The notes beneath the pieces were generated by a model, which worked only from the letters and a program-made list of their open reading frames with translations, was not told the origin of the DNA and did no database searches. A DNA stretch of 32,271 nucleotides from a virus (Duplodnaviria; Heunggongvirae; Uroviricota; Caudoviricetes). The position numbers and the translations under genes are program-made. The stretch lies in IMG/VR virus record IMGVR_UViG_2711768166_000002. The stretch is one strand, 5' to 3'. Position 1 is the stretch's first letter. Every line of letters begins with the position of its first letter. This document shows positions 24,053-29,277 of this stretch, piece by piece.

Positions 24053-24917
24053 GAACTTTCAGGTAGGTATTGTCGTTAAGCAGGAAATCAAATCCCTTTT
24101 TGTGCCAGACGGTTCCGCGTTGATGGTTTGGGCGTTCTTCGAACATCCATCGGCAATTTTCGCCTACGTAGCTCAAATAATTTCTCCAGTCCTGCATCGT
24201 GAACCCATGCCCGTCAAGCTGGCGGGTTATCACTCCGGCTTTGCGCCAGAACGTTCGGATCTGGTTTTTACGCTTGTCATTCAGTGCGCGGATTCTTGGC
24301 GCTTCAGGAAGGATTTCGTGGTAAGCATCGACAACATCCTGACAGCTAACGGAAGGTTTTTTCTTGTCAGACTTTTTGTCTGCTGTGGCACTCTCTAATA
24401 CGTCAGTATTAGAGATATTATTTATATTATTGTTTATGGACAACCGTTGGACAACCGTTGGACAATCTCCGCTGAGAGCCGCGCCATTACTGGTGTTTGC
24501 GTTGGACAACCGTTGGACAACCGTTGGACAATTTTTTGCCTGAAAATCGTCATATTTAACGATTGTAAACAGGCTAAATTTCTTCCCCATCGAGCAAATA
24601 TTAAGCATCCCTTTCGACTCAAAAGTCCGTAATAAGCTCCGAACTTTGTTGTCGGGGATGAATGTTTCTCTGACCAGCGACGGGCGTCCAGTTATCATCT
24701 GACCGCGATCAACAGTTATCGGACCGATATCCGTATTGACGACAGTAGATTCGTGATTAGCCTTGAGGATTAAGTGAAGCCAAAGATGTACTGCCTGAGA
24801 GTCCTTATAGAGCCTGCTGTCCATAAACTGGCGGTGTATAGAGACATACCCCATACTGGATGCCTCCTGATGTTGTACAGGGTTATGCCTGTAATCAGCT
24901 AACTTAACGACGCCCAT
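24027..24917 (-). CDS. Replication initiator (O-like) containing the origin iterons in its coding sequence
   Basis: 296 aa with internal peptide repeats CPTVVQRLSN encoded by the direct DNA repeats. An alternative start at 24854 (MGYVSIHRQF...) has a better AGGAGG RBS. Confidence 0.8.
   Translation of the reverse strand: MGVVKLADYRHNPVQHQEASSMGYVSIHRQFMDSRLYKDSQAVHLWLHLILKANHESTVVNTDIGPITVDRGQMITGRPSLVRETFIPDNKVRSLLRTFESKGMLNICSMGKKFSLFTIVKYDDFQAKNCPTVVQRLSNANTSNGAALSGDCPTVVQRLSINNNINNISNTDVLESATADKKSDKKKPSVSCQDVVDAYHEILPEAPRIRALNDKRKNQIRTFWRKAGVITRQLDGHGFTMQDWRNYLSYVGENCRWMFEERPNHQRGTVWHKKGFDFLLNDNTYLKVREGEHDDR
24395..24535. repeat. Replication origin: two clusters of about 2.5 direct 11-bp repeats (GGACAACCGTT) flanking a 38-bp spacer, with an adjacent AT-rich region
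   Basis: Repeats at 24438..24465 and 24504..24531; AT-rich tattagagatattatttatattattgtttat at about 24408..24437. Same logic as lambda ori inside the O gene. Confidence 0.75.
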
Positions 24918-25752: not shown

Positions 25753-26403
25753 ATGAAAACTCAATTGATGGGAGAGCGCATTCGCGCTCGGAGAAAAGAA
25801 CTCAAGATCAGGCAGGCCGCACTTGGAAAGATGGTCGGCGTGTCTAATGTTGCCATATCTCAGTGGGAACGCTCTGAGACAGAGCCAAATGGAGAGAATC
25901 TTCTCGCCCTGGCTAATGCGTTGAAGTGTTCCCCTGACTATCTGATGAAAGGAGAGGAAAGTCTTTCAAACATTGCCTATCACAGTAGGCATGATCCAAG
26001 AGGGTCATACCCTCTGATTAGCTGGGTGAGCGCAGGATGCTGGATGGAAGCTGTAGAACCATATCATAAGCGTGCAATAGATAACTGGTACGATACAACC
26101 GTAGACTGTTCAGACGATTCGTTTTGGTTGGACGTGAAGGGAGACTCAATGACGGCTCCGGCCGGTCTCAGTATCCCTGAAGGAATGATAATACTCGTCG
26201 ATCCTGAAGTAGAGCCGCGTAACGGGAAACTGGTAGTTGCAAAGCTCGAAGGAGAAAACGAGGCAACTTTCAAGAAGTTAGTTATTGATGCAGGCAGGAA
26301 GTTTCTAAAACCACTTAACCCACAATATCCGATGATCGAGATCAACGGGAACTGCAAAATCATCGGCGTAGTTGTCGATGCAAAACTAGCAAACCTTCCA
26401 TAA
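25753..26403 (+). CDS. c2: C2 prophage repressor (P22 immC type, LexA-like autocleavage domain)
   Basis: 216 aa, MKTQLMGERIRARRKELKIRQAALGKMVGVSNVAISQWERSETEPNGENLLALANALKCSPDYL..., near-identical to P22 C2 as recalled. Confidence 0.95.
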   Translation: MKTQLMGERIRARRKELKIRQAALGKMVGVSNVAISQWERSETEPNGENLLALANALKCSPDYLMKGEESLSNIAYHSRHDPRGSYPLISWVSAGCWMEAVEPYHKRAIDNWYDTTVDCSDDSFWLDVKGDSMTAPAGLSIPEGMIILVDPEVEPRNGKLVVAKLEGENEATFKKLVIDAGRKFLKPLNPQYPMIEINGNCKIIGVVVDAKLANLP

Positions 26404-26427
26404 GGGGGCATTCGCCCCTTTTTTTTA
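26404..26427 (+). terminator. Intrinsic terminator after c2
   Basis: Stem GGGGC/GCCCC with loop ATTC followed by T8. Confidence 0.75.
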
Positions 26428-26439
26428 TTTCCTTTAAAA

Positions 26440-26530
26440 ATCAAAGCCAAACTTAAGTTACGAAAGAAAATTTAAGTTTTCTTCAAAAATACTCTTGACC
26501 ATTAATTAAAGAGATCTTAAATTTAAGCCA
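26440..26530 (+). promoter_or_regulatory. OL operators and PL promoter
   Basis: -35 TTGACC (26495..26500), 17-bp spacer, -10 TAAATT (26518..26523). Operator-like palindrome AATTAAAGAGATCTTAAATT overlaps the promoter. Confidence 0.65.
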
Positions 26531-26569
26531 TCAGCAGGACGCTGGTAGCCAAACGGAACAGATTGGCAG

Positions 26570-26610
26570 GCTCTTTAACATTGATGGGATTGTCCCGCCG
26601 AAATGCGGGA
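26570..26610 (+). promoter_or_regulatory. nutL (boxA GCTCTTTAA, boxB UCCCGCCGAAAUGCGGGA)
   Basis: Same boxA/boxB pair as nutR; located between PL and N. Confidence 0.6.
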
Positions 26611-26717
26611 ACCAAAGAGTAGTTGGCTTTGGGGTGACGTGAAGTGCAGCTGCACGACGGCAACCGGAAGATAAGCACCCGGCGCGTCACCGCCAAAGTC
26701 AATCATCGGAGGTCAAC

Positions 26718-27017
26718 ATGACAGTAGTCATTACATATCTGGCTGACGATAACGCCAGAAATCGCCGCAGAGCACGCAGACAGGCTCAACGTGAACAGGC
26801 AATGCAAGAGCAGCGACTGGCGCGAAAAATTGCGCTAAAGCTCTCTGGTTGCGTCAGAGCAGATAAAGCAGCATCGCTCGGAAGCCTTCGCTGCAAGAAG
26901 GCAGAAGAAGTCGAGCGTAAACAGAACCGTATTTACTACCGCAAGCCACGCAGTGAAATGGGTGTGACTTGTGTTGGTCGCCAGAAAATGAAATTAGGCA
27001 GCAAACCACTTATTTGA
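26718..27017 (+). CDS. N: Antiterminator N
   Basis: 99 aa. N-terminal Arg-rich motif NARNRRRARRQAQRE; C-terminus RIYYRKPRSEMGVTCVGRQKMKLGSKPLI resembles the lambda/phage 21 N C-terminus as recalled. Confidence 0.85.
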   Translation: MTVVITYLADDNARNRRRARRQAQREQAMQEQRLARKIALKLSGCVRADKAASLGSLRCKKAEEVERKQNRIYYRKPRSEMGVTCVGRQKMKLGSKPLI

Positions 27018-27025
27018 GGTGATAT

Positions 27026-27289
27026 ATGGACAAGAAAATTAAATCATTGAAGCCAGGAATTGTTATCAGAGACATAAGCGGTTATTACGATACAGATACA
27101 TATGATATTTTATATGTGCATGCAGATGGAAAATGTCAGTATTCGAACGACATTTTTAATAATAAAGGTGATGCCGAAATTGCTGCCACCACAGTTAATA
27201 AAGAGTTAGTAGCTAATGAGTCGTGGGATTATTTTATGCCATCATCCACTTCTATGAACTGGAAAGTGGTTTTGTACATTCCATCATAA
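27026..27289 (+). CDS. Hypothetical AT-rich accessory protein (87 aa) in the ral/sieB slot
   Basis: ORF track; visibly AT-rich; no recognisable family. Confidence 0.55.
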   Translation: MDKKIKSLKPGIVIRDISGYYDTDTYDILYVHADGKCQYSNDIFNNKGDAEIAATTVNKELVANESWDYFMPSSTSMNWKVVLYIPS

Positions 27290-27330
27290 TTGTAGCTGCC
27301 GTTCAAAAATGAAAGTAAATCTAACATCAC

Positions 27331-27356
27331 AGGCCGCATAGTCGGCCTTCTTTTGG
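27331..27356 (+). terminator. Intrinsic terminator between the two accessory genes
   Basis: Stem aggccg/cggcct with loop catagt followed by tcttttgg. Confidence 0.6.
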
Positions 27357-27402
27357 TATAAACAACAGAATAAACACTGCACTGAATTATTTGAGGTGAG
27401 AT

Positions 27403-27873
27403 ATGACAAAATCATGGAGCGTACCTTTTCCTGAATCAGAAACTGAACATGATGGAATGCCTGTTTTCTGGAGATTCCAAGCGACAGTTGAAGAAGATGG
27501 GATCAAAATATTCGCACTTCAATATATAGCTTTTCATCAGACAGAGCATTATGCATGGTTGGTTCCTGCGCATTGGATTGTTAATTTTAAACCAGCACCA
27601 AATCAGTGGTTACAGGAATGGAAACAAAGGAGAAATAGATATGCAATTAAGAAAGTAGCAAAAAATGCAGAAAGATCTTTTGCATTCCCAACGAAGAAAC
27701 TTGCCATTGAAAGTTTATTGCGCCGGAAGAAATACCATTTGATGCGAATCAAACAAGATTTAGCTGTTGTATCAACTCTTGTTGATGGGATGAAGAATAT
27801 TGATACATCAACACCAGATATTGAATATAACTTTGGACACAACCAAGAAACAGAAAATTGGGTGTTTTATTAG
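27403..27873 (+). CDS. Hypothetical AT-rich accessory protein (156 aa), Trp/His-rich N-terminal half and basic C-terminal half
   Basis: ORF track; same translation-initiation context as the preceding gene; no recognisable family. Confidence 0.6.
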   Translation: MTKSWSVPFPESETEHDGMPVFWRFQATVEEDGIKIFALQYIAFHQTEHYAWLVPAHWIVNFKPAPNQWLQEWKQRRNRYAIKKVAKNAERSFAFPTKKLAIESLLRRKKYHLMRIKQDLAVVSTLVDGMKNIDTSTPDIEYNFGHNQETENWVFY

Positions 27874-27977
27874 TACGAATAAGCACTGTGTATTCATTCC
27901 AACGAGTGAATACACGGAGCAATGTCGCTCGTAACTAAACAGGAGCCGACTTGTTCTGATTATTGGAAATCTTCTTT

Positions 27978-28003
27978 GCCCTCCAATGTGAGGGCGATTT
28001 TTT
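27978..28003 (+). terminator. Intrinsic terminator after the 156-aa gene
   Basis: Stem gccctc/gagggc with loop caatgt followed by gatttttt. Confidence 0.6.
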
Positions 28004-28015
28004 GATGGAGGATAT

Positions 28016-28984
28016 ATGAGTGAAGTAACAGATTTAGTTGTTATTGAAAAAGCAAATGCAATGACTGTATTTCAGTCTGCCGACCAGATTGAAGAAATCC
28101 TTCAAAAGGTTGAACGTGAAGTTATGTCCTTTGTGCCTGATATCACAACGGCAAAGGGCAGAAAGGAGATCGCTTCTCTGGCGTATAAAGTTGCGCAGAC
28201 GAAAACATATCTCGATGGTCTTGGCAAAGACCTTGTTGCTGAACTGAAGGAAATTCCAAAGCTAATTGATGCCAACCGCAAGACAGTGCGCGATCGCCTT
28301 GATGAACTGAAAGCCAAGGCGCGCCAGCCTCTTACTGATTATGAGGAAGAACAGGCGCGGATTAAAGCCGAAGAAGAAGCTAAGGCAGCAGCTGAAGCTC
28401 TCGCAAAGCAAATTGAGTCTGACCATGAAATAGCGATTTTGATGGATCGCGAATTTGACCGCCAAAGAGAAGAGGCAAGACTCAAAGCGGAGCAGGAAAA
28501 GCGAGAGCATGAAGAACGCTTACAAAGAGAAGCTGAAGAGAAAGCCAGAGCTGAAGCCGAAGCAAAGGCAAAAGCCGAAATTGAAGCAGCAGCAAGGCGA
28601 GAAGCAGAAGCTAAGGCCGCAGCGGAACGTGCAGAGCGTGAACGCATTGAAGCCGAGCAACGAGCACAGCGCGAAGCAAAAGAGGCAGCAGAACGAGCTG
28701 AAAGAGAAAAGCAGGCGGCAATTGAAGCAGAACGCCGAAAAGCACAGGAGGAGGCTGAACGAATCCGGCGCGAGGCTGAAGCAAAAGAGCAAGCCAGAAT
28801 AGCAGAAGAAAAAAGAATCAAGGACGAAGAAGAGCGTAGAGCAAAGGATAAAGCTCACCGGAAAGAAGTAAATAACAAAATACTTGCTGACCTTATCAAG
28901 GTTGGCGCACCAGAAGATGTTGCTAAAAATATCATAACAGCCATCGTAAAAGGCGAAGTATTCGCAACAAAAATAACCTACTAA
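28016..28984 (+). CDS. Coiled-coil protein with a long Ala/Glu/Lys/Arg-rich low-complexity central region (TolA-domain-II-like composition)
   Basis: 322 aa. GGAGG RBS. Central region of about 175 aa is AEAKAKAEIEAAARREAEAKAAAERAERERIEAEQRAQREAKEAAERAEREKQ-like repeats. Confidence 0.65.
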   Translation: MSEVTDLVVIEKANAMTVFQSADQIEEILQKVEREVMSFVPDITTAKGRKEIASLAYKVAQTKTYLDGLGKDLVAELKEIPKLIDANRKTVRDRLDELKAKARQPLTDYEEEQARIKAEEEAKAAAEALAKQIESDHEIAILMDREFDRQREEARLKAEQEKREHEERLQREAEEKARAEAEAKAKAEIEAAARREAEAKAAAERAERERIEAEQRAQREAKEAAERAEREKQAAIEAERRKAQEEAERIRREAEAKEQARIAEEKRIKDEEERRAKDKAHRKEVNNKILADLIKVGAPEDVAKNIITAIVKGEVFATKITY

Positions 28985-29008
28985 TAAAACCAACATAAGG
29001 AACCACCC

Positions 29009-29140
29009 ATGATTTACGCAATCGCGGGAGGCGCTCGCATGGGTGCCTTCCAATTAAATGAATCTTTACTTGAACGAATCACCCGTAAATTACGTGACGG
29101 ATGGAAAAGAGTTGAGGTCTTATTATGCGCAATGAAATAG
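29009..29140 (+). CDS. cIII: CIII (FtsH/HflB protease inhibitor), 43 aa
   Basis: Hand translation MIYAIAGGARMGAFQLNESLLERITRKLRDGWKRVEVLLCAMK; the core SLLERITRKLRDGWKR matches lambda CIII as recalled. AAGGA RBS. Confidence 0.8.
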   Translation: MIYAIAGGARMGAFQLNESLLERITRKLRDGWKRVEVLLCAMK

Positions 29141-29277
29141 CCATTAATCACCAGATGCTTCGTGCTGCACAGAACAAAGCAGTAATAGCCAGATTTATTG
29201 GTGATTCAAAAATGTGGTTTGAAGCAAATAAAGCGATGAAATCAGCTATCAACCTTCCGTGGTATCGCAGGAAATGA
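29125..29277 (+). CDS. kil: Kil-like host division inhibitor (50 aa)
   Basis: Hand translation MRNEIAINHQMLRAAQNKAVIARFIGDSKMWFEANKAMKSAINLPWYRRK; the IARFIGDSKMWFEA motif resembles lambda Kil as recalled. cIII-kil order as in lambda. Confidence 0.6.
   Translation: MRNEIAINHQMLRAAQNKAVIARFIGDSKMWFEANKAMKSAINLPWYRRK

Follow-up and report, generated by a model that had tools for sequence, protein, structure and literature searches.

In this study, we analyzed a 32,271-nucleotide (nt) window (the whole of IMG/VR virus record IMGVR_UViG_2711768166_000002) from a lambdoid (P22-like) prophage of Escherichia coli, focusing on the 998 bp at positions 27018-28015, directly after the antiterminator gene N. 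This region, which is identical to that of E. coli strain E1 (NZ_CP104503), contained two open reading frames (ORFs) of 87 and 156 amino acids (aa), here called ORF87 and ORF156. The region is accessory cargo of the hotspot between N and cIII in lambdoid phages, and the present result amounts to a list of useful candidates, not a new mechanism or a new kind of system. With a little more confidence than doubt, we read it as the hypervariable accessory slot of the N-cIII interval, carrying two independent, promoter-less cargo genes that would be transcribed from pL and play an early lytic, host-directed role.

ORF87 and ORF156 are separate cargo and not the two parts of one system. The coding sequence of ORF156 alone was found in 598 of 5426 complete E. 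coli genomes (11%, approximately 1 in 9), whereas ORF87 was rare (8 of 5426). ORF156 usually occurred without ORF87, as in HK97, 933W, and many others, and ORF87 occurred without ORF156 in strains EC28, where other small genes follow it, and MS1657, where it is followed directly by cIII/kil. The two genes are adjacent, co-oriented, and similar in AT content, both here and in three further complete genomes whose matches span the entire 998-bp query, as would be expected of a two-gene system such as a toxin with its antidote or an effector with its partner. However, the unequal counts and the occurrence of ORF87 ahead of other genes speak against such a system, as do the terminator standing between the two genes and the distribution of their distant homologues, which are found in different phage groups. 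We therefore consider a two-gene system extremely improbable, and the description of the two genes as a pair in the first-pass annotation, which had been made from the DNA letters alone, was not upheld.

The same annotation had described two strongly AT-rich ORFs of 87 and 156 aa in the slot just after N, each followed by a hairpin and a T-tract, and this part of it agrees with our results. N was identified by its match to PHROG 271, with cI, cro, and cII lying upstream of the slot and cIII, kil, and RecT downstream, and both ORFs are encoded on the plus strand at 27026-27289 and 27403-27873. Their G+C contents were 0.345 (ORF87) and 0.363 (ORF156), compared with 0.469 for the whole window and 0.498 for N, and those at third codon positions were 0.33 and 0.28, respectively. 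Strong Shine-Dalgarno (SD) sequences precede both ORFs (GAGGTGATATATG and GAGGTGAGATATG), and both hairpins were detected by the terminator scan. The plus-strand order is cI, a pL-like promoter, a nut-like site, N, ORF87, a terminator-like site, ORF156, a non-coding stretch with a second terminator, a gene for a 322-aa protein, cIII, kil, and RecT. The elements of the locus are as follows:

25753-26403, listed in the plus-strand gene order: cI
26495-26523, plus strand: pL-like promoter, TTGACC-17-TAAATT, from the promoter scan
26570-26609, plus strand: nutL-like site read from the sequence, with boxA GCTCTTTAACA at 26570-26580 and a boxB-like hairpin, CCCGC-CGAAAT-GCGGG, at 26594-26609
26718-27017, plus strand: N antiterminator, 99 aa (PHROG 271, E 4.8e-37; weak match to Pfam N_peptide)
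27026-27289, plus strand: ORF87, acidic cargo gene in the ral position, before the first terminator (phrog_33140)
27331-27356, plus strand: terminator-like hairpin and T-tract (AGGCCGCATAGTCGGCCT + TCTTTTGG), from the terminator scan
27357-27384, plus strand: 28-nt backbone spacer TATAAACAACAGAATAAACACTGCACTG, holding the left repeat copy, from the junction alignment
27385-27402, plus strand: left end of the ORF156 cassette, including its SD (AATTATTTGAGGTGAGAT), from the sequence and the junction alignment
27403-27873, plus strand: ORF156, of the HK97 gp45 / 933W L0079 family (phrog_1636)
27877-27888, plus strand: right repeat copy GAATAAGCACTG, flanking the ORF156 insertion, from the junction alignment
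27883-28003, plus strand: lambdoid boundary element (Sf6 'bsq4') with two hairpins and tL2a, from nucleotide homology, scan, and fold
28016-28984, plus strand: 322-aa coiled-coil protein, Sf6 gene 33-like (phrog_1376), from a PHROG match

The Pfam N_peptide match of N (E 8e-4) was under the family cut-off, and the boxA sequence presumably corresponds to the boxA consensus.

Transcription of both genes from pL during lytic growth is the most economical explanation, since no promoter of their own was detectable. A scan of the plus strand at 26300-29200 for sigma-70 consensus matches of 9/12 or better returned only pL, in agreement with the earlier remark that no clear sigma-70 promoter precedes either ORF, and a laxer scan gave at most 8/12 matches besides pL, none of them in the leader at 27290-27402. 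The TGA stop codon of N lies inside the SD of ORF87, and the terminator scan identified no terminator-like site between pL and ORF87; ORF87 is therefore predicted to be an immediate-early gene that does not depend on antitermination. ORF156 is preceded by the terminator-like site at 27331-27356 as well as by N and the boxA/boxB-like site, and read-through is predicted. Accordingly, the suggestion that the two genes are expressed only under N antitermination is retained, as a prediction, for ORF156, which lies beyond the first terminator, and is dropped for ORF87, which lies upstream of it. Because both genes are on the pL strand and lack a detectable promoter, both would be silent in the lysogen, where cI shuts off pL. 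Upon infection or induction, ORF87 would be made together with N on the immediate-early transcript, and ORF156 would be made once N-modified RNA polymerase passes the terminator at 27331-27356. In HK97 and 683R2, where ORF156 abuts N, ORF156 would itself be immediate-early, and tL2a would be the first terminator.

The terminator scan located the two sites at 27331-27356 and at 27976-28003 (TTGCCCTCCAATGTGAGGGCGA followed by TTTTTTG), and the region contained nine terminator-like sites in comparison with 3.2 ± 1.7 in shuffled sequences. The first-pass annotation had assigned each gene its own terminator within a modular cassette layout; instead, both terminators are part of the conserved lambdoid backbone and are found behind other cargo. 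The first terminator is homologous to the one after Sf6 gene 34 and has the same position as the terminator after ral in lambda and in phages encoding Shiga toxin (Stx), and together with its 28-nt spacer (27331-27384) it is homologous to the terminator and spacer that follow ral and Sf6 gene 34. The stretch at 27883-28003 showed 99.2% identity to the ral-ea10 intergenic element of lambda and 97% to Sf6, whose record carries the labels 'bsq4; boundary sequence' and 'terminator; homology to phage lambda; tL2A'. This element consists of a 12-bp hairpin (27888-27915), a second hairpin (27916-27957), and tL2a (27976-28003). The corresponding order in lambda after ral is a small hairpin with a T-tract, the spacer CATAAATAACAGAATAAACACTGCACTG, a 12-bp hairpin, a second hairpin, and the terminator GCCCTCCAGTGTGAGGGC with its T-tract, and the spacer runs uninterrupted into the tL2a element. 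The stretch at 27883-28003 has no notable difference from lambda tL2a and Sf6 bsq4 and is a backbone element rather than a part of ORF156.

The distribution of the tL2a element leads to the same view. The 121-nt element was present at 95% identity or more in 2237 of the 5426 complete E. coli genomes (41%), with up to six copies per genome, and genomes with it were nearly four times as many as those with ORF156 (2237 vs 598). The gene in front of it may equally be ral, sieB, ORF156, or an unrelated 83-aa gene, and the element varies only in the terminator loop and the T-tract. Since the terminators and flanks are lambda backbone, the locus provides no support for self-contained, promoter-less cassettes. 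Conservation this strong may point to a role of the element beyond termination, such as that of a recombination linker or an RNA-processing site. The element carries no RefSeq annotation, and 27874-28006 folds into three hairpins (z -5.4 relative to shuffled sequences). A prophage small RNA (an AgvB-like anti-GcvB RNA) in the leader or the 3' region of ORF156 was considered and rejected: the Rfam scan gave no match at the gathering score (best E-values, 1.5-4.7), the structured 3' region is lambda tL2a/bsq4, and the AgvB/AsxR and Pas RNAs map to the PR'/Q/late-gene region. The Hfq-bound RNA EcOnc20 (Tree et al. 2014; Sakai 1255628-1255753) falls, on NC_002695.2 and with the coordinates taken as published, within Sp5, an Stx2 prophage, in the leader between pL and N (nutL region) and not in bsq4, which suggests that the nut leader RNA is an Hfq ligand.

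We aligned the junctions of the slot in lambda, Sf6, HK97, 683R2, PA28, and E. coli prophages. The backbone is of the lambda type, in which cargo is followed by the small terminator, the spacer, the hairpins, and tL2a; ORF87 stands in place of ral in front of the small terminator, and the ORF156 cassette, which extends from the SD of this gene to its stop codon, lies as an insertion within the spacer. This insertion is flanked by a 12-nt repeat (GAATAAACACTG at 27368-27379 and GAATAAGCACTG at 27877-27888). The 19-nt junction before ORF156 (TTATTTGAGGTGAKATATG) recurs at the N/ORF87 junction (27010-27028), and in HK97, 683R2, and PA28 the ORF156 cassette abuts the 3' end of the N allele of this window via the junction TTATTTGAGGTGAGATATG. 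The 19-nt junction, TTATTTGAGGTGA(T/G)ATATG at 27010-27028 and 27386-27405, carries the stop codon of the preceding gene, the SD, and the start codon, and similar linkers are found before Sf6 gene 34 ((A/G)AGGTGATATATG) and before the Sf6 gp33-like gene (GGAGGATATATG). These short conserved gene-start linkers look like crossover points and may mediate cargo exchange. In PA28 (2480-2593), a remnant of approximately 100 nt from the 3' end of the N of this window (...YYRKPRSETGVTCVGRQKMKLGSKPLI) lies directly upstream of the ORF156 copy, although the functional N is of the 933W type. That PA28 keeps this remnant beside a 933W-type N shows that ORF156 travelled together with this N allele.

Judged by its sequence, ORF156 is not new but a long-catalogued protein that has been annotated as hypothetical for 25 years. 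It belongs to PHROG 1636 (E 2.7e-112, residues 1-156 of 156; function unassigned), and its amino acid identity was 99.4% to HK97 gp45, 100% to 933W L0079, and 99-100% to ORFs of H-19B, BP-4795, Min27, and dozens of Stx1/Stx2 phages. The proteins of HK97, 933W, H-19B, and BP-4795 are encoded in the same early-left operon as ORF156, after N or ral and ahead of the tL2a element, and this family differs only in the upstream neighbor, which is ORF87 here, N itself in HK97, and ral in many Stx phages. The initial statement that neither ORF belongs to a recognizable family therefore stands as regards function; as regards family it does not, since both have PHROGs (33140 for ORF87 and 1636 for ORF156). 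Our literature search returned nothing relevant for the accessions, L0079, or HK97 gp45, and no function was recorded for any PHROG 1636 member.

Relatives of ORF156 with identities as low as 56% were found by a word-indexed search in Pectobacterium, Brenneria, Cronobacter, and Rosenbergiella, and an exhaustive profile search identified 87 cluster representatives of 130-165 aa, which also match PHROGs 13631 and 25384, both without assigned function. The family is broad and phage-only, with members and structural matches in many unrelated phages. The AlphaFold2 model built on a 78-sequence alignment from the profile search reached a mean predicted local distance difference test (pLDDT) score of 95.1 and a predicted template modeling (pTM) score of 0.82; it replaced a run on only 20 close homologues (pLDDT 59.5). 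ORF156 is thus a real gene in view of its 87 representative relatives and this model. The predicted alpha/beta fold comprises three long beta-strands (residues 19-30, 33-46, and 50-55), short helices, a strand (83-86), a 33-residue helix (98-130), and an ordered C-terminal tail. No fold analogue was found among the solved structures of the Protein Data Bank (PDB), and the matches in BFVD were only uncharacterized proteins, from Erwinia, Sinorhizobium, Rhizobium, Delftia, Tenacibaculum, and Cellulophaga phages.

The protein has an isoelectric point (pI) of 9.1 and a grand average of hydropathy (GRAVY) of -0.59. Only four positions (G33, T47, K87, and A101) are at least 90% conserved in the family; basic residues are conserved at positions 24, 75, 83, 84, 87, 108, and 109, and no Asp, Glu, or His is invariant. 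As basic positions are conserved and invariant catalytic residues are lacking, ORF156 is probably a non-enzymatic binder, whose partner would be a nucleic acid or an acidic host protein. The only match of ORF156 in PADLOC-DB was Cas1_II, at an insignificant E of 0.018. Two candidate relationships were rejected: Sf6 gene 34, which occupies the same slot, is not a diverged homologue (hhalign probability 0.6%), and ORF156 is not the 'orf184' of Silas et al., which has 107 aa and begins MEALVVERSEDGYW.

The conserved basic positions and the 33-residue helix would also fit a protein that serves phage development, as an accessory DNA- or RNA-binding regulator or a replication or recombination helper, rather than one directed at host immunity, with ORF87 as unrelated cargo. 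The contexts of several homologues point the same way. In Bas81, in which no integrase or repressor is annotated, a 62%-identical homologue heads an operon that also encodes a ParB-like protein and RusA; in the Vibrio phage PvVp04, the homologue adjoins RecE and replication genes; and in Pectobacterium and Brenneria prophages, it occupies the distal end of the early-left operon, adjoining xis-int and not N. Homologues were always co-oriented with early genes but not always promoter-proximal. On the other hand, ORF156 is optional in otherwise very similar lambdoids, being absent from lambda, Sf6, and Sakai Sp5, and no neighbor is conserved across its contexts. We consider a developmental role unlikely, though a serious rival. 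In T1-like siphoviruses of approximately 47 kb (Bas81 3501-4798; a second contig 3001-4298), the homologue (62-85% identity) is the first gene of a divergently transcribed operon. In most of these contigs, a gene for a ParB/KorB-like helix-turn-helix protein comes immediately after it, in one contig two small genes intervene, and RusA lies farther along. Such a recurrent neighborhood may hint at the function of ORF156.

ORF87 occupies exactly the position of ral in Stx-type phages, ahead of the homologous terminator and spacer, so that the ral slot is indeed occupied, as first proposed. The protein (pI 4.9, GRAVY -0.38, a single Cys) is a member of PHROG 33140 (E 8.9e-49, residues 1-87 of 88; function unassigned), and its relatives formed only 7 clusters among 5.8 billion proteins. 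The distant relatives were found only in Klebsiella phages of the Vequintavirinae (Mydovirus), namely KB57, KpS8, and metagenomic relatives, with approximately 41% identity over the full length; this full-length homology indicates that ORF87 is a real gene. In the Klebsiella phages, the homologues sit within long arrays of small same-strand genes (early-gene blocks). Neither ORF87 nor ORF156 matched Pfam (searched to E ≤ 1) or NCBIfam, ORF87 had no match in PADLOC-DB, and searches of PDB sequences with the profiles of both ORFs gave nothing below E 0.3. ORF87 is unrelated both to the 83-aa gene that fills this slot in strain CUVET18-789 and to lambda Ral, with which BLASTP produced no alignment at E ≤ 100. 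The initial view that these ORFs are unrelated to ral and sieB was thus confirmed.

The likeness of ORF87 to lambda Ral therefore lies in its setting: both are small proteins encoded after N, ahead of a small terminator and spacer (CATAAACAACAGAATAAACAC), and expressed from pL, as predicted for ORF87. They differ in showing no sequence similarity, and Ral (Pfam PF11058) has paired cysteines, in contrast to the single Cys of ORF87. From this position, ORF87 is probably an alternative counter-defense protein, possibly with anti-restriction activity.

SieB is a membrane protein with its own promoter, and SieB and P22 gene 17 represent superinfection exclusion and its countermeasure in the same interval. 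Classical morons come with a promoter and a terminator of their own and are active in the lysogen. One or both of the genes studied here could be such lysogen-expressed morons, transcribed in the prophage from an undetected promoter and protecting the lysogen by superinfection exclusion or defense, like sieB and rex of lambda. Their AT-rich composition and terminator-bounded layout would fit, as would the weak extended -10-like string TGGTATAAA just upstream of ORF156 and the fact that relatives carry, in this slot, sieB and a gp17-like 'superinfection exclusion protein'. Similarly to the morons of HK97 and HK022 (Juhala et al. 2000), they are extra AT-rich genes that are precisely absent from close relatives and have precise junctions between conserved genes. 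In contrast to morons, they have no promoter of their own detectable by the consensus scan (besides pL, nothing reached 9/12 and only 8/12 matches were seen), the SD of ORF87 overlaps the stop codon of N, and the terminators are backbone elements and not moron parts. Although they share the N-cIII interval with SieB and P22 gene 17, both run in the direction of pL, and sieB lies on the other strand in these prophages; they are also unrelated to SieB in sequence and, by their GRAVY values, hydrophilic, unlike SieB. Neither has a significant PADLOC match. Homologues in phages without an annotated integrase or repressor and in the early arrays of Vequintavirinae (Mydovirus) Klebsiella phages also argue against expression in the lysogen, and we regard this explanation as quite improbable.

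An early lytic, host-directed role is favored by the timing of expression, the hotspot location, and the relatives in phages that lack lysogeny genes (no integrase or repressor is annotated in Bas81). The occurrence of family members and structural matches in many unrelated phages and of ORF87 homologues in the Klebsiella-phage arrays likewise fits a lytic rather than a lysogenic role. With low confidence, we propose for both proteins an action on host targets early in the lytic cycle, in counter-defense or host takeover. For ORF156, such a factor is suggested because the conserved basic positions and the absence of invariant catalytic residues point to a binding partner. The slot is also a recognized hotspot of counter-defense genes: 'Ral' accessory regions were among the top-scoring hotspots in Silas et al. 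2023 (bioRxiv 10.1101/2023.04.06.535777), and the 'Ral' region holds ral and orf184, the trigger of the gop-beta-cII abortive system (bioRxiv 10.1101/2023.04.06.535777).

Several points weigh against this role. Neither ORF was detected among the 200 accessory genes of the Silas et al. screen when its supplementary files, with the gene table, were searched by motif. The case for counter-defense consists of position, timing, and distribution; neither ORF has a PADLOC, Pfam, or NCBIfam family, and ORF156 has no structural analogue. The slot also houses defense genes (sieB and P22 gene 17-like 'superinfection exclusion' proteins). As for expression, the consensus scan may miss weak, activator-dependent, or non-sigma-70 promoters, the extended -10-like string TGGTATAAA follows the first terminator, and terminator strength and N read-through are predictions. 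Moreover, the ORF156 homologue of Pectobacterium and Brenneria adjoins xis-int, so promoter-proximal timing is not universal. Taken together, a developmental role of ORF156 is a serious rival to the early host-directed role, exclusion in the lysogen ranks lower in likelihood, and a toxin-antitoxin pair can be all but dismissed. A more specific version of the host-directed role, which we put forward only tentatively, is that ORF156 may represent, in E. coli, a widespread family confined to phages and with a fold lacking a solved analogue, expressed first after DNA entry and neutralizing a host immune system or hijacking a host nucleic-acid machine by an undescribed mechanism, with ORF87 as a second, rare inhibitor substituting for Ral.

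Beyond the two genes, the 142-nt non-coding gap containing the second terminator (27976-28003) separates ORF156 from the gene for the 322-aa protein (28016-28984), which lies between tL2a and cIII. This protein is highly charged and is called 'TolA protein' in some records, and its gene is another cargo gene without an assigned function; in other prophages, its position is taken by ea10/DUF2528, gp17-like, or Nmad5-family genes. Elsewhere in the window (24426-24543), two clusters of three 11-bp repeats (GTTGGACAACC), with 44 bp between them, lie within a minus-strand gene for a 296-aa protein adjoining a DnaB-like helicase gene, and are probably replication-origin iterons inside an initiator gene.

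Anti-restriction and exclusion functions (ral, sieB, and P22 gene 17) are known to be encoded in the N-cIII interval of lambdoid phages. ORF156 is present in approximately 1 in 9 complete E. coli genomes and in phages including HK97 and the Stx phages 933W and H-19B. What this study adds is a confident predicted fold without a solved analogue, a family of approximately 90 cluster representatives, and a precise anatomy of the insertion. The fold and the early-expression context make ORF156 a well-defined target for anti-defense screens. If the proposed role is true, finding the target of ORF156 would define a new anti-defense or host-takeover family in well-studied model phages, namely the Stx-converting phages and HK97.

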